A model generated the notes under the pieces. It was not told the DNA's origin and searched no databases. It worked only from the letters and a program-made list of their open reading frames with translations. The position numbers and the translations under genes are program-made. Of a DNA stretch of 64,000 nt, positions 3,200 to 61,286 are shown piece after piece. Source of the DNA: Candidatus Falkowbacteria bacterium (lineage in GTDB: Bacteria > Patescibacteriota > Patescibacteriia > XYB2-FULL-38-15); assembly GCA_016214745.1 (NCBI GenBank), contig JACRNW010000006.1, forward strand, positions 13,367 through 77,366, read 5' to 3'. Position 1 is the first letter of the stretch. Every line of letters starts with the position of its first letter.

Positions 3200-3285
3200 T
3201 TTAGTTAAATAGTTAATCAGTTAAATGGTTAAGTAGTTTTGTCGAAGGCAGTCACCGATTAACTGAGTAACTGATTAGCCAACTA
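3200..3285. repeat. Palindromic intergenic element family P2 (gttaatcagtt...aactgattaac), copy 1
   Basis: Inverted arms agttaaatagttaatcagttaaatggttaag / cgattaactgagtaactgattagccaactatt. Related copies at 8956-9083 and 61178-61286. Confidence 0.7.
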
Positions 3286-4576: not shown

Positions 4577-4762
4577 TTATTTTTTCTGCGTTTTTCGGCG
4601 TTATTATCGGCGTTTTTCTGCGGGAATGATAATTTATAGAAGCAGATTTACGCGGATCAAAACGCGGATTTACGCGGAAGATTTTAAGGTTTTTAAAACA
4701 GCCCTGGGGGCTATTTAGGATTAGTATAGCACAGGTTAAAAATAGCGCAAGATCCACTCTGC

Positions 4763-4867
4763 GAATTACAAATTATTTACAAATTTACAAATAACGGAAA
4801 AATGAGTTTTACCAAATTAACGTGTTAGCAAGAATTTGTATATTTGTACCGAATTTGTAATTTGTAG
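4763..4867. repeat. Palindromic intergenic element family P1, copy 2
   Basis: gaattacaaattatttacaaatttacaaataacgg...aattaacgtgttagcaagaatttgtatatttgtaccgaatttgtaatttgtag, directly after the gyrB stop. Confidence 0.8.
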
Positions 4868-4871
4868 TTGA

Positions 4872-6956
<2,085 letters not shown>

Positions 6957-8955: not shown

Positions 8956-9083
8956 AGTCAGTTAATCTGTTAATCAGTTGATTAGTTAATCAGTTTTTGG
9001 TTTTGTTGGGTAGTTTTTGTTTGTGGCAATTTAGTCGCCATTTTTTTAACTGATTAACTATTTAACCATTTAACTATTTAACC
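8956..9083. repeat. Palindromic intergenic element family P2, copy 2
   Basis: gtcagttaatctgttaatcagttgattagttaatcagtt...ttaactgattaactatttaaccatttaactatttaacc. Confidence 0.7.
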
Positions 9084-9086
9084 AAA

Positions 9087-10181
9087 GTGCTCTCGCGGTA
9101 TTTTTCATTTTTAAAACGTTTTGACTGGGTACTCGCGACTTCAGTATTTTTGCTTATGGTTTTAAGTTTAGTCGCGCTTTACAGCATTTCTTTAAGCAAA
9201 GCCCCGCCGGATTTTTTAAATTTTAATAAGCAGTTGATTTTTATTTTTGTCGGCTTGGCGGGATTTTTTGTTCTTAGTATTTTGGATTATAAGTGGTTGA
9301 AATTTTACAGTTTTCCCATTTACGGTCTGGCGATGATTTTGTTAATCGCTGTTTTGATTTTTGGCCAGGTTATTCGCGGAACTCAGGGTTGGTTTGGTTT
9401 TGGTTGGTTTAATTTTCAGCCGGTGGAAGTGGCGAAACTTGCCATGATTATTTTTTTGGCGAAATATTTTTCCCGCGGGGCGCATGAAATTTTTAATTTT
9501 AAATATATCGCGATAAGCGGAGTTTTTTCAGGAGTTTTGATCGGTTTAGTTTTGCTGCAGCCGGATTTTGGTTCGGCGTTGGTTCTTTTTTTCTTGTGGC
9601 TCGCGATGTTATTTTTAATTGGAATAAAGAGATCGCACTTGATTTTACTTTTAGTTTTGGTTGCGGTGCTTCTCGCCGGTTCGTGGTTTTTTGTTTTTCA
9701 GGATTATCAAAAAGAAAGAGTTTTGAGTTTTTTTGACGCTTCGCGCGATCCGCTCGGCCGCGGCTACAATATTACTCAGGCGCAGATTGCCGTCGGTTCG
9801 GGCCAAATGCTCGGCCGAGGAATTGGTTTTGGACCGCAAAGCCAATTGCGTTTCGTTCCGGAAAGCCAGACGGATTTTATTTTCGCCGTTTTAGCCGAAG
9901 AATTGGGTTTTTTGGGCGCGGCGCTTATTCTTGCTCTTTGGGGCGTTATTTTTTGGCGGGTTGTCCGAATCGCGAGACGCGCCCGCGACGATTTCAGCTT
10001 ATTTTTCGCGGCCGGTACAGCGATTGTCTTTTTGATTCAGATTTTTATTAATATTGGTATGACAGTCGGAGTAGCGCCGGTGACCGGTATTTCTTTGCCG
10101 TTTTTAAGTTATGGCGGCAGCGCGCTGGTCGTAAATTTAGCGATGGTCGGGATTTTAGAGAGTATTGCGGCAAGATCGTAA
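9087..10181 (+). CDS. SEDS-family peptidoglycan glycosyltransferase (RodA/FtsW)
   Basis: 364 aa, polytopic, with conserved SEDS segments (QPVEVAKLAMIIFLAKYF; PESQTDFIFAVLAEELGFLG; LPFLSYGGSALV). Confidence 0.8.
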   Translation: MLSRYFSFLKRFDWVLATSVFLLMVLSLVALYSISLSKAPPDFLNFNKQLIFIFVGLAGFFVLSILDYKWLKFYSFPIYGLAMILLIAVLIFGQVIRGTQGWFGFGWFNFQPVEVAKLAMIIFLAKYFSRGAHEIFNFKYIAISGVFSGVLIGLVLLQPDFGSALVLFFLWLAMLFLIGIKRSHLILLLVLVAVLLAGSWFFVFQDYQKERVLSFFDASRDPLGRGYNITQAQIAVGSGQMLGRGIGFGPQSQLRFVPESQTDFIFAVLAEELGFLGAALILALWGVIFWRVVRIARRARDDFSLFFAAGTAIVFLIQIFINIGMTVGVAPVTGISLPFLSYGGSALVVNLAMVGILESIAARS

Positions 10182-12337: not shown

Positions 12338-13234
12338 TTATATTTTAAAAATAACAACTCTATTTCTTCCCGCCAGGTCTTGTTTAATCTTTATTTTCGC
12401 GGCGGGAAAACGGCGCTTGATTAGTTTTGTGATAGATTTTTTTTGCGATGGGTCAATTTCGAAGAAACATGAAATATGAAACTTAAAACTTGAAACTTGA
12501 AAATTTTTGATTTGTTTTAGGAGTTGGCGGTAGTAATTGAGGCCGTCAGAACCGCCGTCCAGAGCTTGCTTCGGTTCATATTTTTTAATTTCCGGTTGAG
12601 TATGTCGCCACTGCGTGGTAGTGAGGTATGGCAAATTGGCAACGATTATTAAGTTGGAGTAGCGCCCGTAAGGGCGCGCTTGTGACGCAGCCTCACGGCT
12701 GCTATTCCGCGATGGAATAGTCATCAATGGCTCAAGCAAATTGCCGTGTAGCAAAGTAACGGCGACTTTATGATGAAGAATATTTTTTCGCGCTACTTTT
12801 AACGCCGCCGCCGAAATTTCTGTGGCGAAGATTTTTGCTTTGGGAAGATGGTGGGCGAGTGTTATGGCGATGGCGCCGCTTCCGGTTCCGACATCAATGA
12901 TTGCAGTTGGATTTTTATCTATTGCGGCTTCAACTAATGTTTCCGTTTCGGGGCGGGGGATTAGAACATTTTTATCAACAAAAAAATCCAGGCCGTAAAA
13001 ATATTTGTGGTCCGTGAGGTAGGCGATTGGTTCATGCCGTACTCGCCGAGCAATAAGTTTTTTAAATTTAGCCAGTTGTCCCGCGGCCAATTTTTTTTTA
13101 GGATGCGCGTACAAAAATTCTTTTGGTTTTTTTGTAACAAAAGCTAAAAGAATCTCTGCATCCAAGGCAGGGGAGGAAATTTTATTTTTTTGTAAAATTT
13201 TTATTGCCTCAATGAGCGATTGCTTGATAGTCAT
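12338..13234 (-). CDS. prmC: release factor glutamine methyltransferase PrmC/HemK, carrying a roughly 20-aa in-frame GC-rich insert
   Basis: DVGTGSGAIAITLA (SAM motif I) and IVANLPYL (NPPY-type motif). I place the start at MTIKQSL because the upstream in-frame codons lie inside the terminator hairpin of the neighbouring islet gene. The insert is MTIPSRNSSREAASQARPYGRYS, encoded by hairpin-forming GC-rich DNA at 12655-12728. Confidence 0.75.
   Translation of the reverse strand: MTIKQSLIEAIKILQKNKISSPALDAEILLAFVTKKPKEFLYAHPKKKLAAGQLAKFKKLIARRVRHEPIAYLTDHKYFYGLDFFVDKNVLIPRPETETLVEAAIDKNPTAIIDVGTGSGAIAITLAHHLPKAKIFATEISAAALKVARKNILHHKVAVTLLHGNLLEPLMTIPSRNSSREAASQARPYGRYSNLIIVANLPYLTTTQWRHTQPEIKKYEPKQALDGGSDGLNYYRQLLKQIKNFQVSSFKFHISCFFEIDPSQKKSITKLIKRRFPAAKIKIKQDLAGRNRVVIFKI
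12655..12728. repeat. In-frame GC-rich palindromic mini-insert inside prmC
   Basis: Hairpins agcgccc-gtaa-gggcgcg and ctattcc-gcgat-ggaatag lie between the conserved HemK motifs, where homologs have about 7 residues. Confidence 0.55.
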
Positions 13235-13316
13235 AGCGTTATTATAACATAAAAAAAGGCCTGAGCACTTGCGCACTCAGGCACCTCCTTGGAATTCGTT
13301 CCGCGGTGGGCTACGT

Positions 13317-13853
13317 TCAGGTGGGCTTGCCGGCGGTGGGCTCGACGACCTCCAGCTCCTCCTCGACGACCTCGGCTTCCGGAGCGTCAGCTTCTTCCGT
13401 GGCGGCTTTCGTGGCCTCCGCTCGGCTCTCGGTGACACAAGCGTCGAGCTCACGGTAGGGGAAAGCGTTGACGAGGTTGCTCCACGTGACGGGGTGACCG
13501 TCGGAGTCTTCCGTGTGGAGGAACTCCTCGAAAGCCGTCACAGTTTCATCGTGAGGGATTCGCTTGAACAGCTCGTCGACGAACAACTTGAAGTCCTTGG
13601 TGGCCGCCTCGAAGAGAGTCAGATTGTCCTCCACGCTTCCATGCCAGCCGGCGTAGAAGGGTCCGACGATCTTCGCGAAGCCGTGCAGTCCGACGAGACG
13701 CTTCAGGCCGGCGACGAAGCTCGGCTTCAGGCCCTCGCCGGGGATGGCCAGGATCTTGGCCACGATGTCCTCGACCCTCAGGAACCCCGTCAGGTAAGCC
13801 TTCTCCAGGCCGTCCGCAAGAAATACCTTCGCCATTTCCCGTCTGTCTTCCAT
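13317..13853 (-). CDS. GC-rich islet protein A (hypothetical, acidic C-terminal tail)
   Basis: MEDRREMAKVF... of about 178 aa. It has its own promoter (TTGACA-17-TAATGT at about 13918-13946, minus strand), an SD (gaaggaaaacc) before the ATG, and a hairpin plus T-run terminator (13259-13285, minus). GC content is far above that of neighbouring genes. Confidence 0.5.
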   Translation of the reverse strand: MEDRREMAKVFLADGLEKAYLTGFLRVEDIVAKILAIPGEGLKPSFVAGLKRLVGLHGFAKIVGPFYAGWHGSVEDNLTLFEAATKDFKLFVDELFKRIPHDETVTAFEEFLHTEDSDGHPVTWSNLVNAFPYRELDACVTESRAEATKAATEEADAPEAEVVEEELEVVEPTAGKPT

Positions 13854-13917
13854 GGTTTTCCTTCGCTTGCCTTTGCCCGCGACACGCGGGGAATTTTGGC
13901 AAGACCTTTCTACCCGC

Positions 13918-13946
13918 ACATTAGTTTAAAAAATTTTGTTTGTCAA
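13918..13946 (-). promoter_or_regulatory. sigma70-type promoter of islet gene A
   Basis: Minus-strand read cTTGACAaacaaaattttttaaacTAATGT: 17-nt spacer, placed about 60 nt upstream of the ATG. Confidence 0.45.
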
Positions 13947-14122
13947 GATAAAAAAAGAGCCCGCGGACTGCCGGGAGGGGGTGGGAGGTCTAAGACCTTT
14001 CCACGCGGCAGTACGCGGGCTTCGCGCCGGGGCTCTCCTGTGGTTTCGGGAGGGGCGCGAATTTGGACGGAGAACGAGCGGGTTAGGAACTCGCAGCTCT
14101 CACGTTGTTCGGGGGTGGACTA

Positions 14123-14335
14123 CTACTGGTCGGTGCCGTGAAGGCGGTATTCGCGCGCCTTCCGCCTGGCTCCTTCGGCTTGGCGGCGTTCCTCCTCGTC
14201 GTCGGGGATGAACCCGTCGGCGCGGCGATGATTCGGCCGACGCCTCTCGATCACGAACGGCCCTCCGTCCGGAATGATGCGAGATCCGTCGCGCGAGAGA
14301 GGCGTGCCATCGTGCATGAAAACTCCCTTTGACAT
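14123..14335 (-). CDS. small basic GC-rich protein (about 70 aa)
   Basis: The SD GAGGAGG lies 6 nt upstream of ATG: MSKGVFMHDGTPLSRDGSRIIPDGGPFVIERRRPNHRRADGFIPDDEEERRQAEGARRKAREYRLHGTDQ. Confidence 0.3.
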   Translation of the reverse strand: MSKGVFMHDGTPLSRDGSRIIPDGGPFVIERRRPNHRRADGFIPDDEEERRQAEGARRKAREYRLHGTDQ

Positions 14336-14500
14336 CCCTGTCCTCCTCAACCTTCCCTACGATCTCTATTGACAACTCGTCCCGTCCATCGGGCCGAGAT
14401 GTAGGGCCACCTTCCTTGCGTTTTGACGCGTGTCAACGGCGCAAAGCCACCCTGTTTGTTGATTTCATAATATTACAAAAAGATTAATTTGTCAACCCCC

Positions 14501-14529
14501 TTGACAAATTTTTTAATTATGATAGAGTA
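14501..14529 (+). promoter_or_regulatory. sigma70-type promoter (TTGACA, 16-nt spacer, TGaTAGAGT extended -10) overlapped by the inverted repeat ttgtcaa-ccccc-ttgacaa
   Basis: Read directly from the sequence. No protein-coding ORF follows it. Confidence 0.4.
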
Positions 14530-14534
14530 TTACG

Positions 14535-14855
14535 GCAAGGGTAATGGGGAGTCCTGTTCGGCTGATGCCAGCAGCGCACTGGCGTCATGGGTAATCTTTT
14601 TTCATCCCAAATCTAGAGCCCCTGGTTGGCGAACAGCGCGTTGATGCGCGGCCGACCTTGAGGCAAAGGACCCACGGGGTGGTCAGCAGGAACCCGGTCC
14701 GCGAGCTGCCCGTGAAGCAGACGTGGACTGAAATCTCCCCCGCGTTTTCGATCCTCCAAATCCGCTTTTAGCGGGTAAGGAGGTCACCCTTCTTTGCACA
14801 CCGCTACGTTTCGCGTTGTGCCTGTCGGTCGAACACCTGTTCGGCCGACTCTTTT
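14535..14855 (+). ncRNA. Candidate structured GC-rich non-coding RNA of about 320 nt (identity unknown)
   Basis: A promoter at 14501-14529, no ORF longer than 10 codons, and a strong terminator at 14818-14855 (gtcggtcgaacacctgttcggccgac + tctttttt). About 60% GC in an AT-rich genome. I could not match tmRNA, RNase P or SRP signatures by eye. Confidence 0.3.
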
Positions 14856-14880
14856 TTATATCAAAATTTATATCAAAAAA

Positions 14881-15083
14881 CCGGCCTTGCGGCCAGTCAA
14901 TTTTCCCCTCTTAAGGTAAGAGGGGCTGGGCCTGCCCGCAACGCCAGCAACCTGCCCGCTAATGCAAGCATAGCGTTGCAGGCGGGGCTGGCTTGCGTGG
15001 CGGGCGGGGGCGTTATGAGCGGCGATTTTAAAATCCACGGTTCATAACGCCACCCAACCCCCCCTTATCTTAAGGGGAGGGGT
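14881..15083. repeat. GC-rich composite element G1, copy X (flanked by ccccttaagg-type mini-hairpins)
   Basis: The roughly 130-bp core (cccctcttaaggtaagaggggctgggcctgcccgcaacgccagcaacctgcccgctaatgcaagcatagcgttgcaggcggggctggcttgcgtggcgggcgggggcgttatga...) is nearly identical to the reverse complement of 33070-33200. The last hairpin encodes the prfA C-terminus and stop. Confidence 0.8.
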
Positions 15084-16122
15084 TCATTGTTTCTTTTTTC
15101 AACACTTCAATGATCGGGTCAAGTTCGCCATCCATCACGTTATTTATACTATGCCAACTTTCTTTAACGCGGTGATCGGAAACGCGGTCTTGAGGAAAAT
15201 TATAAGTTCTGATTTTTTCCGCGCGCATGGCCGAACCGATCTGCGAACGTCGCGCCGCGACTTCCGCCGCCTGGCGTTTTTCCTGCTCCATTACAAAAAG
15301 TCGGGCGCGCAAAACTTGCATGGCTTTTTCCCGATTTTGCTGCTGGGAACGTTCGTCTTGGCAGGCGACAACAAGGCCCGACGGAATATGAGTAATACGC
15401 ACGGCGGAATATGTCGTTTGCACGCTCTGCCCGCCATGGCCGCCGGATAAAAATGTATCAACGCGCAAATCTTTTGGTTCAATTTTAATATCAATTTCTT
15501 CAGCTTCAGGAAGGACGGCGACGGAAGCGGTTGAAGTATGAACCCGGCCGCTTTTTTCCGTTTCCGGAACGCGCTGAACGCGATGCACGCCGCTTTCAAA
15601 TTTTAAATTTCCCCAAGCACCTTTTCCGATAACAGAAAAAATAATTTCTTTAAAACCTCCAAGGTCAGTGCGGTTGGCCGAGATCAATCTTGTCTGCCAG
15701 CCCTTGCGCTCGGCAAAGCGCGAGTACATTCGGAAAAGTTCGGCGGCAAAAATTGCGGCTTCATCGCCGCCGGCGCCAGCCCGGATTTCCACAATAATAT
15801 TTCTTTTGTCCAACGGATCTTTCGGCGTCAGTTCTTCTTTGATTTCCGCTTCAAGCGCCGACTTTTCTTGCCTAATTTTTTCCAATTCTTCTTTGGCAAT
15901 GACAGCCAATTCGGGAATGTCTTGCGCAGCAACGGTTTCCGTGTCAGTTTCTTCCTTTTCCAGTTTATGAAATTTATTTATTTTTTCCATTACTTCTTTT
16001 AAGTCGCTGTATTCCCGCGAAACGGTTTTCAGTTTTTCCGGATTAGAAACCACCTCGGGGCGGGCGAGTTCGGCCTCGAGTTCGGCAAAACGTTTTTCAG
16101 CTTTAGCGATTTCAGGAATCAT
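15070..16122 (-). CDS. prfA: peptide chain release factor 1
   Basis: 350 aa with GGQ ([12 protein letters not shown]) and the RF1-type PxT-like tripeptide ([14 protein letters not shown]). Confidence 0.9.
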
Positions 16123-16221
16123 AAATTATTTAAACATCTAAACATTTAAACATTTTAACATAAATTCTAACATAAAAACATGATAACAAAAACGTTACCA
16201 TGTTTTATGCAAATTGAATAG

Positions 16222-17885: not shown

Positions 17886-17961
17886 TTTTTATAAAAACAT
17901 ATAAACATCTAAACATACAAACAATTGTTTAAATGTTTAAATGTTTGAATATTTAAATATT

Positions 17962-18552
17962 ATGATCGTAAATCCAAAACTTGTTTCCGAGCTCCGCAAT
18001 GAAACCGGCGCCGGCGTTGTTGAATGCAAAAACGCCCTGGACGAAGCGAACGGAGACATCGCAAAAGCGATTGAAATTTTGAGAAAAAAGGGTGAGATTA
18101 AAGCCGCGAAAAAATCGGCCGAACGGACAACCAAAGAAGGTTTGATTCATGCTTATGTCCACGCGAACGGCAAAGTCGGAGCGATGATTGAAATGAGTTG
18201 TGAAACTGATTTTGTGGCGCGGAATGAAGAATTTCAGGCTTTGATTCATGATGTCGCGATGCAAGTCGCGGCGACTAATCCGTTGTACGTAAAACCCGAA
18301 GACGTGCCGGAAGAAGTGGTTGCAAAAGAAAAACAGATGTATCTTGAAGAATTGCAGGGGCAGGAAAAACCGCCGATGGTAGTGGAAAAAATTCTCGCGG
18401 GAAAATTGGAAAAATATTTTGAAGATGTTTGTCTCTTAAACCAGCCGTTCGTTAAAGACGAGGATATTACAATTGGAGAATTAATAAATCAAAAAATCGC
18501 CAAGATCGGCGAGAAGATTGAAGTGAAGAAATTTGTTAGGTTTCAGATTTAA
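17962..18552 (+). CDS. tsf: elongation factor Ts
   Basis: EF-Ts N-terminal UBA-like region (ELRNETGAGVVECKNALDEANGDIAKAIEILRKKG) and core. I place the start at ATG 17962 rather than the track's 17941. Confidence 0.85.
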   Translation: MIVNPKLVSELRNETGAGVVECKNALDEANGDIAKAIEILRKKGEIKAAKKSAERTTKEGLIHAYVHANGKVGAMIEMSCETDFVARNEEFQALIHDVAMQVAATNPLYVKPEDVPEEVVAKEKQMYLEELQGQEKPPMVVEKILAGKLEKYFEDVCLLNQPFVKDEDITIGELINQKIAKIGEKIEVKKFVRFQI

Positions 18553-27825: not shown

Positions 27826-28728
27826 TCAGACAATACTCTTTTTTAGGACCGGCGCAGCGGAGATGATTTTTATTTTGGGAATTTGTTTTGCTTTTAGCAT
27901 GGGATAAGTGTCGGTTATCAAGACTTCCTTAATGGGTGATTTTTTTATTCTCGCGATGGCCGGGCCGGAGAGAACGCCGTGAGCGGCGGCGGCATAGATG
28001 GCGCGGGCGCCGGCACGGTGAAGTGCTTCGGCCGCGCCCGCGAGCGTCCCGGCCGTATCGATCAGGTCGTCAACCAAAACAATGTTTTTATTTTTAACGT
28101 CCGCGCCTTTTGGCAGTGAAATGCGAGCCACATTCGGCCGCGGTCTGTATTTTTTGCAATAGCCGACCGGACCAGCCAAGTTTTTCTTGCCATAAATTTT
28201 CGCGAATTGTTCGGCCCGATGAATCCCGCCTTGGTCTGGAGAAAAAATTAATAAATTATTAAGACACATTTTTTTAAAGTACTCTGCTAACGCCGGATAG
28301 GCACTTAAATGGACAAGCGGCTTGGTAAAAAATTTTTCGTTTTGTCCGCTGTGAAGATTAAAAGTTAAAATTTTGTCCGCACCGGCTGCGGCCAGCAAAT
28401 CAGCCATTAATTTTGCCGTAAGCGGCGCGTTCGGTTGGTCAATCCAATCCTGTCTGGCGTAGCCAAAATAGGGGATAATGACATTTATTTTTTTGGCGGC
28501 GGCGGTTTTTAAAGCATTAATTAAAATGAGTAACTTCAAAAGATTATCCGACGGCGGCATGGTGGAACCAATAACCCACGTCGCCTTGCTGCGAACTTTT
28601 TCTTTTGGCCGGACATAAAGTTCGCCATCGGAGAAATTTTTTATTTCTAAATGGCCGAGTTTGAGGCGGGCGTGGCGTACAAGTGCCTTAGTCAAATCGG
28701 GGTTAGTGTTTGTGGAGAAGAGAAGCAT
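27826..28728 (-). CDS. prs: ribose-phosphate pyrophosphokinase
   Basis: Prs N-terminus (MLLFSTNTNPDLTKALVRHARLKLGHLEIKNFSDGELYV) and the PRPP loop VLVDDLIDTAGTL. Start placed at ATG 28728. Confidence 0.8.
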   Translation of the reverse strand: MLLFSTNTNPDLTKALVRHARLKLGHLEIKNFSDGELYVRPKEKVRSKATWVIGSTMPPSDNLLKLLILINALKTAAAKKINVIIPYFGYARQDWIDQPNAPLTAKLMADLLAAAGADKILTFNLHSGQNEKFFTKPLVHLSAYPALAEYFKKMCLNNLLIFSPDQGGIHRAEQFAKIYGKKNLAGPVGYCKKYRPRPNVARISLPKGADVKNKNIVLVDDLIDTAGTLAGAAEALHRAGARAIYAAAAHGVLSGPAIARIKKSPIKEVLITDTYPMLKAKQIPKIKIISAAPVLKKSIV

Positions 28729-31970: not shown

Positions 31971-32027
31971 TTTTGATTTCTCCCCTTAAGGTAAGGGGAG
32001 ATTAAGAGGGGTGAAATGGGGTTGACA

Positions 32028-32056
32028 AACTTGCTAAAATGTGTTATTCTAAATTG
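32028..32056 (+). promoter_or_regulatory. sigma70-type promoter (gTTGACAaac-17-TATTCT) preceding a hairpin-dense roughly 300-nt leader of islet gene D
   Basis: Read from the sequence. The leader at 32060-32360 contains at least 6 GC-rich hairpins (ctccccgaaggggagag, ctccctttaaaaaagggagag, cccccctttatcaagggggga and others). Confidence 0.35.
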
Positions 32057-32365
32057 TTAGTAAATAGTTCTTTTAAAGGTAAAACCCCCTCACTCCAACT
32101 CTCTCCCCGAAGGGGAGAGAGAGTTTCCTCGCCCCACTGGGGAGAGGACTAAGGTGAGGGGGCAACAAGTTCCCAGTTTTCTTTTGGCGGTTTTAAATCC
32201 CTCTCTAACTCTCCCTTTAAAAAAGGGAGAGAAATTCCCCCCTTTATCAAGGGGGGATTAAGGGGGATTTGCGAAGACCCCCAAAAGAAGGCTGGGAATT
32301 TCTCTCGGCCAGAGACAGCAACGTAGTCGCCGCGGGCGACCAGTTGCGAAGAAGGAGAACGAGTC

Positions 32366-32869
32366 ATGAGCGACGAGTTCAGGATGACGACGGGACAGGC
32401 GCATGAGTTGGCGATGGCCTTCGGTCGCAACGGCTGGACCAACGCCGACGTGAAGAAGATGTCTGAGGGCGATCTGCTCGCCCGACTGCTACCGGTCATC
32501 CGGGGGCAGGCCGACGTGAAGAAGCCGGAAATCCCGACCGAGATGACCGTCGGCGGCCGCGTCTACGAGATCCTCTCCTTCCTCCGGGAGGAGGACAACG
32601 GATTCGTCCGCGGCGACGTGATGGTCTCCCGGGCGAAGGAGCTCGGCGCCAACCTCGGCAAGGAGGACTGCGAGTTCCTCCTCACCCACCAGGACGAGAT
32701 TCCGCCCGCGTTGCGGGGCAAAGTCGTCTTCGTCTTCCCGGACTTGCGGCGCCCGGGCGACCGCGAGCACGTCGCGTACCTCCACTGGGACGACGGCGGC
32801 TGGTACCGGCACTGGTACTGGCTCTCGGACGACTGGGACGGCTACGATCGTCTCCTTCGCCGCAAGTAG
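32366..32869 (+). CDS. GC-rich islet protein D (hypothetical, W/D-rich C-terminus)
   Basis: SD gaaggag before the ATG. 167 aa with high GC3. Shares a weak DCEF/FEEF-L-x-T motif with islet proteins A and C. Confidence 0.45.
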   Translation: MSDEFRMTTGQAHELAMAFGRNGWTNADVKKMSEGDLLARLLPVIRGQADVKKPEIPTEMTVGGRVYEILSFLREEDNGFVRGDVMVSRAKELGANLGKEDCEFLLTHQDEIPPALRGKVVFVFPDLRRPGDREHVAYLHWDDGGWYRHWYWLSDDWDGYDRLLRRK

Positions 32870-33018
32870 TGTCCTTGGACCCTGGGTAACTCGGCCCTTC
32901 AAACCGGCCTGGTCGCTCGGACCCTCGGACACTTTGTCCCTTGGCCCCACTTCAAATCCAATGCTTCACAAAGCAAAGGAAATGAAGCGGGGCCGTTTTT
33001 TTATTTAAGATTTTAGAT

Positions 33019-33207
33019 TTTCTCCCCTTAAGGTAAGGGGAGACTAAGAGGAGTTATGAACGGTGGATTTTAGTGCTACGGTTCATAACGCCCCCGCCCG
33101 CCACGCAAGCCAGCCCCGCCTGCAACGCTATGCTTGCATTAGCGGGCAGGTTGCTGGCGTTGCGGGCAGGCCCAGCCCCTCTTATCTTAAGAGGGGAGCG
33201 TTATACT
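33019..33207. repeat. GC-rich composite element G1, copy Y (inverted relative to copy X)
   Basis: The reverse complement of 33070-33200 matches 14908-15040 almost base for base. Confidence 0.8.
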
Positions 33208-34655: not shown

Positions 34656-34913
34656 ATGCATGACCTTCACGAAGCAGACAGAATTTTAAAATTAGTTTTG
34701 GATCACGCCGAGCGCCATAAGTTGAAGTCGGTGACAAAAGTCGTTATCGGACTTGGCAGCGTGATTGAGCATGGTTCGGAAATAAATCCGGAAAATTTAA
34801 AATTTAATATTGGCGTGCTGGCGCGTCAAACTATGGCGGAAAACGCGGAAGTGGTGGTTAAAAAAATAAAAGCCGATACTTGGGAACTTGAAGAAATAGA
34901 GGGGGATAAATAA
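34656..34913 (+). CDS. hypA: HypA-like N-terminal domain protein (nickel-insertion factor) lacking the C-terminal zinc finger
   Basis: MHDLHEADRILKLVLDHAERHKLKSVTKVVIGLGSVIEHGSEINPENLKFNIG matches the HypA N-domain pattern (MHE-type N-terminus). 85 aa with no Cys; the ORF stops immediately before P1 copy 3. Confidence 0.5.
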   Translation: MHDLHEADRILKLVLDHAERHKLKSVTKVVIGLGSVIEHGSEINPENLKFNIGVLARQTMAENAEVVVKKIKADTWELEEIEGDK

Positions 34914-34917
34914 ATAT

Positions 34918-35026
34918 CTACAAATTACGAATTCGGTACAAATGTACAAATTTTTTCTAACACGTTAATTTAAAAAAACGTAATTTGTCGTTATTTGTAT
35001 ATTTGTAAATAATTTGTAATTTGTAG
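34918..35026. repeat. Palindromic intergenic element family P1, copy 3 (inverted relative to copies 2 and 4)
   Basis: ctacaaattacgaattcggtacaaatgtacaaattttttctaacacgttaatt...ttatttgtatatttgtaaataatttgtaatttgtag. Confidence 0.8.
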
Positions 35027-49223: not shown

Positions 49224-49691
49224 TCATCGAGACAGCCTGACCATGCGAAGCAGCTTGGTGAAGGCGCCGCGGCAGTAAGCCTCTGCGCCGCCGTTTTCGA
49301 CAGGCGTGCCCTCGAGCAGTGTTTCGAACCCTTCGTACAGATCGTGCCGGAAGGTGTTCAGGGCGTGCGTGATTTCCCGCATTACTCGGGCACGGGCGTC
49401 GCGATTGCTCCATTCGCGAGTGGCCCGTTCGTAGGTTTCGCGGCTGATTACGGGCAGCGAATTTCCGGCCCGCATTCGTTCGACCGTCTCCAGAATCACC
49501 CAGAGGTAGTAGAGGAAGGCGAGATTTTCCCAAGTCTCGCCGGGATTCGCTCCGAAGATCTCGGCCAGACCATCCCGCACTTCTTCGAGCCAGTCGGCCG
49601 TAGCCGATTCGTCCGCTCGCAGGTCAACGATCAAACCGTTGAATTGGTCCCGGACAGAATTCCGACGCTTTTTGGCGTGTGTATCTTCCAT
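49224..49691 (-). CDS. GC-rich islet protein B (hypothetical; possible paralog of A and C)
   Basis: Promoter TTGACA-17-TAAGGT (49719-49747, minus) and SD aaaggagg. C-terminal LLRMVRL parallels ILRMIQL of protein C. Confidence 0.45.
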   Translation of the reverse strand: MEDTHAKKRRNSVRDQFNGLIVDLRADESATADWLEEVRDGLAEIFGANPGETWENLAFLYYLWVILETVERMRAGNSLPVISRETYERATREWSNRDARARVMREITHALNTFRHDLYEGFETLLEGTPVENGGAEAYCRGAFTKLLRMVRLSR

Positions 49692-49843: not shown

Positions 49844-50305
49844 TCAGTCGGCTGCTCGCAGCTCCTTGCTTCGTGCGCGTTCAAGCTGGATCATTCTCAG
49901 GATTACGGCGAAGATGTGTTCAACCAGCCTTCTGACGTGAAGCGACGCGATTGACTCGTTGAGTGTCGGTCTGAACTCACAATCGATGGTCTCGCGAAAC
50001 TGGTCGAAACTTTCATCATCAAGTGCGTTGTTCGGAACTTCACCGAGTCCACGCCATGCCTCGCCGGACGAATTAGAGGAGATTCGCGGCAGTTGATGGT
50101 CCAGCAATTTCTCGACGCTTTGCAGGCCTTTGAACATCACCGACATCGCCTTCAGGAAGTCGGAAGAAGCCAACTCAGAACCCCGAGCTCTTGCCCTGTT
50201 GAAGGCTTTCGCGATTTCGGGGTTGCTTTCCTGGAAGTCCTGGAATTTCTGGAAGGCAAAATTGTGCGGTTCTGCCCTTTCGGACGATTCCTCCTTGTTT
50301 CCCAT
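49844..50305 (-). CDS. GC-rich islet protein C (hypothetical; possible paralog of A and B)
   Basis: Promoter TTGACA-17-TAAAGT (50330-50358, minus) and SD aaaggagg, with the same architecture as gene B. Confidence 0.45.
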   Translation of the reverse strand: MGNKEESSERAEPHNFAFQKFQDFQESNPEIAKAFNRARARGSELASSDFLKAMSVMFKGLQSVEKLLDHQLPRISSNSSGEAWRGLGEVPNNALDDESFDQFRETIDCEFRPTLNESIASLHVRRLVEHIFAVILRMIQLERARSKELRAAD

Positions 50306-55541: not shown

Positions 55542-55916
55542 CTACTCGGTCGCGATCATCTGGAACGAGAGTGGTTCTCCGCACTCGCTGCAGTGGAAGC
55601 GCTTGGTCGTTGGCTTGCCAAAGTTCTTGCAGGTAGCCCGTGAACAGGTGCCGATGAGGGCTGGAGTGCCCCGCGTGACCGTGAAGGGCACTTCGGTGAT
55701 CTTGAGTTCCCAGCCCTGCGGCAGAACTTCCCGAAGTTTTTCGGCATTCTTCCTGGCCGTGGCGTCGGAAGAAACTTGGCCGTCCGGCAGATCAGTGAAG
55801 AGAAATCGTCCAGAGCCGACCGGCACCTTGAGATCCGGCGCCTTCGGGTCGTCGCTTGGCCGATAGATTGTAATGTGGTACAGCTTGGGCGTTCCCGGCT
55901 GTGTTGATTCTCCCAT
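55542..55916 (-). CDS. GC-rich islet protein E with a C-terminal zinc-ribbon-like motif
   Basis: TCSRATCKNF...FHCSECGEPL (two Cys pairs). SD ggaaagggagg. Long hairpin terminator at 55470-55530. Confidence 0.45.
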   Translation of the reverse strand: MGESTQPGTPKLYHITIYRPSDDPKAPDLKVPVGSGRFLFTDLPDGQVSSDATARKNAEKLREVLPQGWELKITEVPFTVTRGTPALIGTCSRATCKNFGKPTTKRFHCSECGEPLSFQMIATE

Positions 55917-58648: not shown

Positions 58649-58772
58649 CTACAAATTACAACTCTACAAATTACAAATCATTTACAAATATACAAATAAC
58701 AGTGAAGTGTATTTTACAAAATTAACGTGTTAGTAAAAATTTGTATATTTGTACCGAATTTGTAATTTGTAG
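58649..58772. repeat. Palindromic intergenic element family P1, copy 4
   Basis: ctacaaattacaactctacaaattacaaatcatttacaaatatacaaataacag...aattaacgtgttagtaaaaatttgtatatttgtaccgaatttgtaatttgtag. Confidence 0.8.
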
Positions 58773-58785
58773 AATAGTAGAATGT

Positions 58786-58983
58786 ATGAAGAAATATTCA
58801 TGTGCACGTTGCGGAAAGGGGAGAACGCGCTACCGCACTCCGTCGCCTTTTAAAGTAATGGCGGCCGAACGGGCTAAAAGAGATAAAATATATGCCCCGT
58901 TAGAAGTTCAGCAACGTGCTTCTCAAGGCAACGCACAAAAGGCGAAGCCGACTTACGTCTCTCGTTACGTGGATAAAAGATAA
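58786..58983 (+). CDS. small basic protein with a single CxxC
   Basis: MKKYSCARCGKGRTRY... of 65 aa. Start placed after the P1 repeat. Confidence 0.3.
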   Translation: MKKYSCARCGKGRTRYRTPSPFKVMAAERAKRDKIYAPLEVQQRASQGNAQKAKPTYVSRYVDKR

Positions 58984-60983: not shown

Positions 60984-61177
60984 GGAATTTGTTTTGTGGA
61001 TAAAATTAGCTTGACAGGTTTTTCTGGGTATTGTAGTATAAATTAATTGACAAGCGAATGAGAGAAATGAATTTATTCATTTCCGAGTGAGCGCAGTCAA
61101 TATAGGGTAAAACCCTCTATTACCAAAGACAGCAGGCGTTTGCCCTAAAAGGCGACTCAATTTCCTGCCGAGGTAAA

Positions 61178-61286
61178 CTAGTTGATCAGTTAAATAGTTA
61201 ATTGGTTAAATAGTTATTGTCTCGTGGTAATTGCCACGATTTTTTGTATCCCGATTAACTAATCAACTGATTAACCAATTAACTGA
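61178..61286. repeat. Palindromic intergenic element family P2, copy 3
   Basis: agttgatcagttaaatagttaattggttaaatagtta...ttaactaatcaactgattaaccaattaactga. Confidence 0.7.

Follow-up and report, generated by a model that had tools for sequence, protein, structure and literature searches.

The genes for release factor 1 (prfA) and its methyltransferase (prmC) lie 15-140 nt apart in distant Patescibacteria (PrfA 50-58% identical). In the DNA considered here, the same two genes are separated by a gap of 1,835 nt (13235-15069) that is far richer in GC than its surroundings. The window, that is, the whole stretch analyzed, is 64,000 nt of contig JACRNW010000006.1 from a Candidatus Falkowbacteria bacterium, a member of the candidate phyla radiation (CPR)/Patescibacteria. 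The islet between prfA and prmC raises the question of how DNA of such composition came to lie between two housekeeping genes, how long it has been there, and what it encodes.

The explanation favored here, at a probability of about 0.6, is that the prfA-prmC site of one Falkowbacteria-like subclade holds a modular array of GC-rich accessory cassettes, each of them autonomous, and that this array is old and shared across the clade. The two open reading frames (ORFs) of the islet encode protein A and a 70-aa protein, s70; neither has a family match in Pfam, PHROGs, or NCBIfam. It also contains a candidate small RNA (sRNA) and a candidate structured leader upstream of s70.

Composition and Limits of the Islet

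The GC content is 58.2% for positions 13269-14870 and 57.9% for the whole gap, compared to 42.8% for the window; a preliminary description of this DNA, made from the letters alone, had put the region at roughly 60%. In 200-nt windows (mean 0.428, standard deviation (sd) 0.073), the gap is the longest GC-rich block of the window. Its GC excess is real and far above chance.

The same is observed in GC content at third codon positions (GC3). The 65 window ORFs of at least 100 aa have a median GC3 of 0.45 (sd 0.09), and highly expressed ordinary genes of this genome reach only about 0.5-0.55. The gene for protein A has a GC3 of 0.81 in the window and 0.72-0.86 across prfA-prmC islets of related genomes, mostly 0.79-0.86, with 0.72 in L009 (L-numbers denote loci in other assemblies). 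The corresponding values for s70 are 0.75 and 0.63-0.75. Two further kinds of gene found in related islets, Zn-ribbon-like ORFs and prs, have values of 0.74-0.79 and 0.66-0.73, respectively, while flanking genes range from 0.36 to 0.55. The islet ends abruptly in GC3, as prfA and prmC stay at ~0.4 up to the gap edge. In every ortholog of the islet genes, GC3 far exceeds GC content at second positions (GC2), which is a coding signal.

Genomic islands are recognized by several features, and the islet has one of them, an atypical composition (GC 58% vs. 43%; GC3 0.75-0.81 vs. a median of 0.45). The gap does not have an integrase or recombinase, a tRNA or transfer-messenger RNA (tmRNA) target, or direct repeats. 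ARAGORN gave neither tRNA nor tmRNA genes for the window, no integrase-like ORF is present in the gap, and the window repeat comparison gave no direct repeats bracketing it. The islet is also not absent from close relatives. Every genome found whose PrfA reaches 85% identity or more carries the block as a whole; among these genomes patchiness is confined to individual cassettes.

Age and Distribution

Relatives were located through homologues of protein A and s70 in independent ENA, Logan, JGI, and NCBI assemblies of different samples. Three pairs of loci are duplicates (L001 = L002, L003 = L004, L090 = L091). A GC-rich prfA-prmC block is found in at least 14 other independent assemblies (L001, L003, L005-L010, L088-L090, and L105-L107), and the common gene order is L31, prfA, GC-rich gap, prmC, DUF3048, L25, and FtsW. 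Gap GC was measured at nine loci: the eight complete gaps have 54-58% against flanks of 41-46%, and the truncated gap of L010 has 48% against 43%.

PrfA is 85-91% identical among the compared loci, with L007-L010 being 88-91% identical to the window. PrmC is 64-74% identical and DUF3048 74-82%. Synonymous divergence (dS), estimated by the Nei-Gojobori method (NG86), is 0.5-1.4 for protein A, 0.55-1.19 for prfA, 0.88-1.27 for prmC, and 0.80-1.01 for DUF3048. Because the block occupies the same site in at least 14 other assemblies and protein A has a dS comparable with that of the flanks, these comparisons indicate that the block is ancestral to one Falkowbacteria-like clade, is about as old as that clade, and is not a recent acquisition.

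This changes how the islet was originally understood. The preliminary description viewed it as horizontally acquired or mobile cargo maintained with host-type expression signals, and it allowed that the segment could instead be ancestral in related genomes or be an assembly chimera. It is ancestral in the genomes listed above, and the recurrence in independent assemblies all but excludes a chimera. The atypical composition, the host-type promoters and terminators, the modular units, and the G1 repeat at the prfA end all stand. Recent acquisition does not, given the clade-wide presence and a dS like that of the flanks.

The islet was also said to split an almost universally adjacent gene pair. 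This is accurate with respect to distant Patescibacteria, where the two genes abut, but the gap is already occupied by prs in L011 (Falkowbacteria, PrfA 77%) and in sister genomes. In L009, L088, L089, L105, and L106, the gap contains prs followed by the leader, a small ORF, and protein A. In L013 and L014, the gap holds a nucleotidyltransferase gene. From these gene orders, the prfA/prmC pair is judged to have been already split in the Falkowbacteria lineage.

Within the block, whole cassettes may be present or absent. L003, L010, and L107 have no sRNA unit; in L003, ~37 nt take the place of 373 nt of the window and fill precisely the interval from the prfA terminator to the leader -35 box. 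Protein A is missing in L008, where the s70 terminator is kept and followed by a ~170-nt hairpin repeat before prmC. Identities are mosaic; L005, for instance, matches the window at 89% in s70 but at 65% in protein A and 67% in PrmC.

No match to the islet was found among phages and plasmids by blastn and tblastn. A search of IMG/VR with a protein pattern and two RNA motifs gave only chance 16-17-mers. In the literature, nothing was found on the prfA-prmC locus or on GC-rich cassettes in CPR.

Further observations concern the islets of relatives. A palindromic repeat, GCGAGCGAGAGAAATGAA...TTCATTTCCGAGCGAGCG, lies at islet boundaries in L001 (~4790-4840) and L008 (6040-6170), and it is tandemly duplicated in L008, the locus from which the protein A cassette is missing. 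In L009 (5466-6488), the islet prs is split into two ORFs (172 and 164 aa); the split is due to an assembly error, or else the gene is a frameshifted copy or pseudogene that is being lost. The window has a prs-like gene elsewhere (27832-28728, minus strand) that is only 34% identical to the L011 Falkowbacteria prs. This second prs-like gene may explain how the lineage of the window could lose a prfA-linked prs from its islet.

Transcription Units of the Islet

The gap is composed of three complete promoter-to-terminator units: the sRNA on the plus strand, and the leader with s70 and protein A on the minus strand (Table 1). This agrees with the preliminary description, which had proposed three units, had given protein A its own TTGACA-17-TAATGT promoter and a terminator, and had recognized a non-coding transcript with promoter and terminator on the opposite strand. 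All of these signals were located. The part called a 5' untranslated region (UTR) of the 70-aa gene is better described as a conserved structured leader.

The sRNA and leader promoters are arranged back to back. Their -35 boxes are 5 nt apart and together form the palindrome TTGTCAAcccccTTGACAA. On the prfA side, the terminator block GGCCGCAAGGCCGGTTTTTTGAT is near-invariant among relatives, the sole variant being L006 with GGCCGTAGGGCC. The 3' UTR of s70 is conserved in part in L005, L006, and L008.

On the prmC side, the protein A terminator is directly followed by ATGTTATAATAACGCTATG (13235-13258, minus strand), which contains an extended -10 element (TGnTATAAT) that ends 6 nt before the ATG at 13234. 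The same sequence is found in L005. This placement suggests a leaderless or near-leaderless prmC mRNA.

Table 1. Features of the prfA-prmC islet, its flanking genes, and other GC-rich ORFs of the window
Feature	Position	Strand	Remarks
prmC, release-factor glutamine methyltransferase	12338-13234	-	Pfam PrmC_N 3.9e-20, MTS
Protein A intrinsic terminator	13259-13282	-	Just upstream of prmC
Protein A	13317-13853	-	178 aa; all-helical orphan with disordered acidic C-terminal tail (APEAEVVEE...)
Protein A promoter, TTGACA-17-TAATGT	13918-13946 (-35 13941-13946; -10 13918-13923)	-	Read from sequence; region aligns with L003
s70 3' UTR	13950-14122	-	~170 nt; ends in long GC hairpin and T-run terminator, about 13950-14020
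s70	14123-14335	-	70-aa mixed-charge protein; Shine-Dalgarno sequence (SD) GAGGAGG; ORF conserved in >10 loci
Candidate new structured 5' leader	14336-14462	-	~125 nt; upstream of s70
Leader/small-ORF promoter, TTGACA-17-TATTAT	14467-14495	-	11/12; kept in 9 loci
sRNA promoter, TTGACA-16-TAGAGT	14501-14528	+	-35 and -10 kept in 7 loci
Candidate new structured sRNA	14535-14856	+	~325 nt; RNAalifold; ends in terminator 14824-14849
sRNA intrinsic terminator	14824-14849	+	
prfA intrinsic terminator	14879-14898	-	Present in all relatives
G1, GC-rich MITE/REP-like repeat (abbreviations in text)	14904-15079		176 nt; hairpin ends
prfA, peptide chain release factor 1	15070-16122	-	Pfam PCRF 3.6e-71, RF-1 4.8e-40
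ORF167	32366-32869	+	GC3 0.92
orf155	49224-49691	-	GC3 0.69; orphan-looking; locally GC-rich patch
orf153	49844-50305	-	GC3 0.63; orphan-looking; locally GC-rich patch
orf124	55542-55916	-	GC3 0.70; Zn-ribbon-like CxxxxxxxxxxxHCxxC motif; locally GC-rich patch

Two Candidate Structured RNAs

The sRNA was folded with RNAalifold on five alignable sequences. The consensus has 98 pairs, with 96.9% of cells paired. Compensatory pairs number 11, compared to 5.4 in column shuffles (1/500) and 0-3 with slid partners. The plus strand folds better than its reverse, as judged by G-U pairs and energies. The sRNA has so far been found in about 7 genomes of one clade, and its middle is replaced in L001 and L009.

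In the predicted fold, the 3' domain of the sRNA contains a perfect SD-like UAAGGAGGU that is paired away against GAUCCUCC. A small ORF (14794-14919) behind this sequestered SD was considered and rejected, since its frame is not conserved. The motifs GGGGAGUCC and GAACCCGG suggested RNase P. This was also rejected, as those bases pair in covarying helices and the topology is different.

The leader was folded from 13 sequences. Its three stems comprise 26 pairs, 6 of them compensatory (1/500 shuffles; slid controls 1-3), and the share of paired cells is 97.6%. Invariant unpaired GGAAGGUGGCCCUA and UAGGGAAGG adjoin the SD GAGGAGG. The SD itself is unpaired in the minimum free energy (MFE) and consensus folds, and an alternative pairing, CCCUA/UAGGG versus AGGG/CCCU, involves invariant bases.

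The leader is conserved much better than the ORF downstream and is kept when that ORF is swapped. It is always upstream of a small ORF. Searched with a covariance model of the leader, 288 kb of sequence gave a single copy at each islet locus, L105 among them, and no further copy. As in cis-regulatory leaders, the 5' UTR structure is conserved and supported by covariation.

A window scan against 4227 Rfam families gave no gathering-level match in the islet to either RNA, and at E<=10 the region 13200-15150 had only five spurious low-score matches. The sRNA and the leader are thus presented as candidates for two undescribed structured RNAs.

Proteins Encoded by the Islet

Protein A is identical to the NCBI hypothetical protein HZB93_01745. 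It is found in about 10 clusters among 1.84 billion representatives, and a peptide-pattern search for the family in GTDB species representatives found none. AlphaFold2 (AF2) gives a confident model from 4 sequences, and this model has no fold match. PADLOC, searched along with the three family databases, likewise gave no match for protein A. Among the loci, protein A is 31-67% identical, where 31% is the lowest global pairwise value; the best tblastn segment for L006 has 28%. Down to ~28-31% identity, the orthologs keep their ORF length and a GC3 well above GC2. An A-family gene is also present in L087, outside the prfA-prmC site. Flanked by clpP and rny and next to a different small ORF, it is equipped with a promoter and terminator of its own and has a GC3 of 0.69.

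An antisense shadow ORF of 290 aa covers protein A (13269-14141, plus strand). It is stop-free from high GC and is spurious. In L105 (9611-10237, minus strand), gene callers annotated shadow ORFs in place of protein A and the small ORF.

s70 belongs to the same high-GC3 class and falls below the 100-aa limit of the ORF list. It is not annotated in the NCBI record and has no identical protein in the collection. A conserved N-terminal motif, GVFxxDGTPLSRDG, and a C-terminal Arg-rich helix characterize the protein. Its isoelectric point (pI) is 9.7, yet it has 15 K+R and 13 D+E. The preliminary description had named it a basic protein with a GAGGAGG SD; the SD is as described, and the protein is only mildly basic. 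s70 is 31-89% identical among the loci, its AF2 model is poor (predicted local distance difference test (pLDDT) 60.6), and no match was found in Pfam, PHROGs, NCBIfam, or PADLOC.

In L007, L009, and L106, s70 is replaced. The leader is there followed by an unrelated Zn-ribbon-like protein (CGTILR...CSxHT). Neither the Zn-ribbon-like proteins nor ORF167, described below, have a match in Pfam, PHROGs, NCBIfam, or PADLOC. A sequence profile search against PDB gave no match.

The ratio of nonsynonymous to synonymous divergence (dN/dS, NG86) is 0.36-1.0 for protein A, compared to 0.06-0.25 for the flanks, and 0.2-0.7 for s70. These ratios indicate relaxed or diversifying selection on both proteins.

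The G1 Element at the prfA End

The prfA end of the islet carries G1. A second copy lies inverted at 33022-33197, has the same 176 nt, and is 90% identical. Partial copies are present in L003 and L006, and G1 is absent from the aligned prfA-prmC gaps of L001, L005, and L006. In the window, PrfA ends in ...KKETMNPSP, whereas relatives without G1 end in ...KKT. By this comparison, the last ~5-7 codons and the stop of prfA come from G1, close to the five codons and stop that had been attributed to its terminal hairpin. Judged from these alignments, G1 is a true insertion and the only demonstrably more recent one at the islet.

G1 has what describes a miniature inverted-repeat transposable element (MITE) or repetitive extragenic palindromic (REP) sequence: two inverted copies in the window, hairpin ends, and a presence that is polymorphic between relatives. 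Like the palindromic repeats of the REP/bacterial interspersed mosaic element (BIME) and MITE type, it is short (about 176 nt), GC-rich, and non-coding. Such repeats are multicopy, lie at gene ends in either orientation, and can overlap or rewrite the 3' end of a gene, as G1 does. Unlike REP or MITE families with a transposase, e.g., the REP-associated tyrosine transposase (RAYT), none was seen for G1; this comes from the survey of window ORFs, and no search aimed at transposases was made.

Other GC-Rich Cassettes and Repeats in the Window

The true-gene GC3 outliers among the 65 window ORFs are all small orphans. Of these, orf155, orf153, and orf124 may belong to the same cassette class as the islet genes. 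ORF167 lies in an islet of its own (31977-33197) with 59% GC, flanked on both sides by genes for hydrogenase subunits. ORF167 has a TTGACA promoter and a terminator to itself and is bracketed by 36-nt direct repeats (31977-32012 and 33019-33054), with the second G1 copy on the right. From promoter to terminator, the ORF167 cassette is 83-88% identical in L107 (17558-18609), where it is beside gyrB. Since ORF167 lies between hydrogenase genes here and beside gyrB in L107, at least some high-GC3 cassettes are, on this comparison, located at different loci in related genomes.

In the 5' UTR of ORF167, AAAGAAGGCTGGGAATTTCTCTCGGCC (32284-32311) bears a loose resemblance to AAGGAAGGTGGCCCTACATCTCGGCC (14385-14412, minus strand), the invariant core within the s70 leader. 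The leader covariance model does not detect this UTR at E<=1, and the likeness may be due to chance.

Two families of AT-rich repeats are also present. Intergenic 8-nt-periodic arrays (TAAACATnT / AGTTAAnn) are located at 3203-3239, 8960-9004, 9047-9087, 16115-16163, 17886-17962, and 61172-61216; some are directly upstream of prfA and some are beside an L10 leader (Rfam match 61105-61255). The other family, ~50-120 nt in length, has the form ATTTGTATATTTGTA...AATTTGTAATTTGTAG and occurs in both orientations at 2649-2751, 4756-4881, 34904-35026, and 58650-58786.

Proposed Model of the Islet

The proposed model builds on cassettes that are each transcribed as a unit, from a sigma-70-type consensus promoter to an intrinsic terminator. 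The leader would be a cis-regulatory RNA, acting as a riboswitch or as an autoregulatory element that binds protein, and would gate translation of whichever small ORF follows. The predicted switch is the invariant CCCUA, which could pair with the upstream AGGG or with the downstream UAGGG beside the SD. The effector may be a metabolite or the encoded basic protein. The divergent sRNA, which shares the palindromic -35 region with the leader promoter, is likely co-regulated and probably acts in trans. Protein A and the small proteins are putative accessory or conflict-type genes because of their dN/dS, patchiness, and lineage restriction.

Exchange of cassettes between genomes may take place by recombination at the hot spot, as suggested by the mosaic identities, the presence and absence of cassettes, and the relocating ORF167 cassette. 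Such exchange would offer a route to lasting GC-richness, through GC-biased gene conversion (gBGC) or through repeated overwriting from a GC-rich pool. In a broader and more speculative form, an undescribed class of self-contained GC-rich gene and RNA cassettes, free of transposases, might relocate or be exchanged between intergenic sites, with an extreme GC3 (0.7-0.9) that is actively maintained and no relic awaiting amelioration. The prfA-prmC array, including the sRNA and the riboswitch-like leader, would then be the oldest and best conserved example.

Weighing of Alternative Explanations

The most serious alternative is that the islet genes are native and vertically inherited, and that their GC3 was raised and is held locally by gBGC at a hot spot, by selection on mRNA structure or stability, or by a transcription-linked bias in units with very strong promoters. 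It draws on prs. The AT-rich prs of L011 (GC3 0.40), which lies at the same position and is orthologous by position and phylogeny, shares 64-69% identity with the islet prs (GC3 0.66-0.73); the next-nearest relatives are at 55%. Intermediate GC3 values are found in L109 (0.44) and L108 (0.61), the latter with AT-rich flanks and a TTGACA-17-TATAAT promoter of its own. A housekeeping prs that looks vertically inherited is therefore, on these comparisons, also GC-enriched in the islet. Most protein A orthologs keep a GC3 of ~0.8 despite a dS of 0.5-1.4, which fits a composition held in place. Substitution counts are less informative. Naive parsimony of synonymous changes gives 69 from G/C to A/T (S->W) against 16 in the reverse direction (W->S) for islet genes, and 50 against 54 for the flanks; the 69:16 excess either reflects real decay or is an artefact of parsimony. 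For singleton substitutions, the islet skew is what a stationary two-state model on a star tree would give (prs expected 0.80, observed 0.84, p=0.42), but decay from an ancestor with GC3 near 1 is compatible with it too, so that these patterns do not discriminate. Against in situ enrichment, the highly expressed ordinary genes stay at about 0.5-0.55 in GC3, and the ORF167 cassette at different loci in two genomes points to movement and not to a site-bound process. Enrichment in place is a tentative possibility. The prs pattern fits it at least as well as it fits a foreign pool, and this counts against an array of accessory cassettes, as do several other points. The islet has yielded no recombinase, integrase, attachment site, or flanking direct repeat, so that exchange by recombination is only inferred. 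Folded as a single sequence, the leader is unexceptional (z = -1.7), the RNA alignments are shallow (5 and 13 related sequences) and relatedness alone could exceed the shuffle controls, and the switch model rests on invariant bases, which are unable to show covariation.

The remaining alternatives carry less weight. A toxin-antitoxin or anti-phage module, made up of the basic small protein, an acidic-tailed partner, and RNAs as antitoxin or regulator, would account for small, lineage-restricted, fast-evolving proteins of opposite charge (pI 9.7 vs. 4.6) in variable cargo at a site flanked by core genes. It is unlikely, as the two genes have separate promoters and terminators and form no operon, protein A is missing in L008 where s70 is kept, s70 is replaced in L007, L009, and L106, and protein A sits beside a different small ORF in L087. 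A type II toxin-antitoxin pair is co-transcribed and co-inherited, and protein A and s70 are neither; PADLOC, Pfam, PHROG, and fold searches also gave no match. Even less probable is that a GC-rich island, foreign or mobile, was recently inserted into an abutting prfA-prmC pair. The contrast in composition (GC 58% vs. 43%; GC3 ~0.8 vs. 0.45), the sharp boundaries, and the 15-140 nt spacing in distant Patescibacteria speak for it, but it is largely refuted by the recurrence of the block at this site in 14 or more other assemblies, its dS being like that of the flanks, and by prs already in the gap in L011 and sister genomes. Integrase, tRNA, direct repeats at the ends, and phage, plasmid, or viral relatives are all missing as well. 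An artefact, whether an assembly chimera or spurious ORFs in a GC-rich non-coding spacer, has a negligible probability. In its favor are the absence of s70 from the NCBI gene calls and the spurious ORF antisense to protein A, whose counterpart was called by gene finders in L105. Against this are the same architecture in ENA, Logan, JGI, and NCBI assemblies of different samples, the GC3 far above GC2 and the ORF length kept to ~28-31% identity, and the confident AF2 model of protein A from 4 sequences.

Relation to Known Systems

An old array of cassettes at this site resembles the accessory hot spots or islets that are flanked by core genes, with a fixed site between housekeeping genes and variable, lineage-restricted, atypical cargo. 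It differs from them in the missing integrase, tRNA, and attachment repeats, and in cargo that has long been conserved (dS about 1). Every unit runs from promoter to terminator, and two are or contain structured RNAs. The GC3 of about 0.8 persists in a genome at about 0.45.

Integron cassettes are another modular, single-gene cargo that is present or absent between relatives at one site. Integron cassettes are promoterless, end in attC, and are found beside an intI gene. Unlike these, the islet cassettes each have their own promoter and terminator, and the gap has no integrase.

The leader is similar to riboswitches and to autoregulatory leaders of the ribosomal-protein type. Like them, it is a conserved 5' UTR with several stems, in which compensatory changes occur and unpaired invariant stretches adjoin the SD, and it is retained when the ORF is swapped. 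Unlike known riboswitches, it matches 0/4227 Rfam families, and the downstream genes are orphans, so the genomic context gives no clue.

The sRNA resembles trans-acting sRNAs of 200-400 nt (6S-sized or larger orphan non-coding RNAs (ncRNAs)) in having, as an independent transcript, a promoter and terminator of its own, a GC content above that of the genome, and numerous covarying helices. It differs from known sRNAs in having no Rfam family, in its restriction so far to one clade (about 7 genomes), in the middle domain replaced in L001/L009, and in the predicted sequestration of a perfect SD-like UAAGGAGGU.

Significance

To our knowledge, the structured ncRNAs and regulatory leaders of CPR/Patescibacteria are almost uncharted. 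The locus offers two RNA candidates that are supported by covariation and have defined promoters and terminators, and hence are directly testable. It also shows what automated annotation can overlook, as s70 is missed and an antisense shadow ORF of protein A is sometimes called.

The islet is a natural case for a general question, namely, whether an atypical GC content of bacterial genes always means a recent foreign origin. A GC3 of ~0.8 at a fixed site through a dS of ~1 would mean that the composition is actively maintained, or that a hidden GC-rich pool is overwriting the site. In such genomes, calls of horizontal gene transfer based on composition would misdate the prfA-prmC block.

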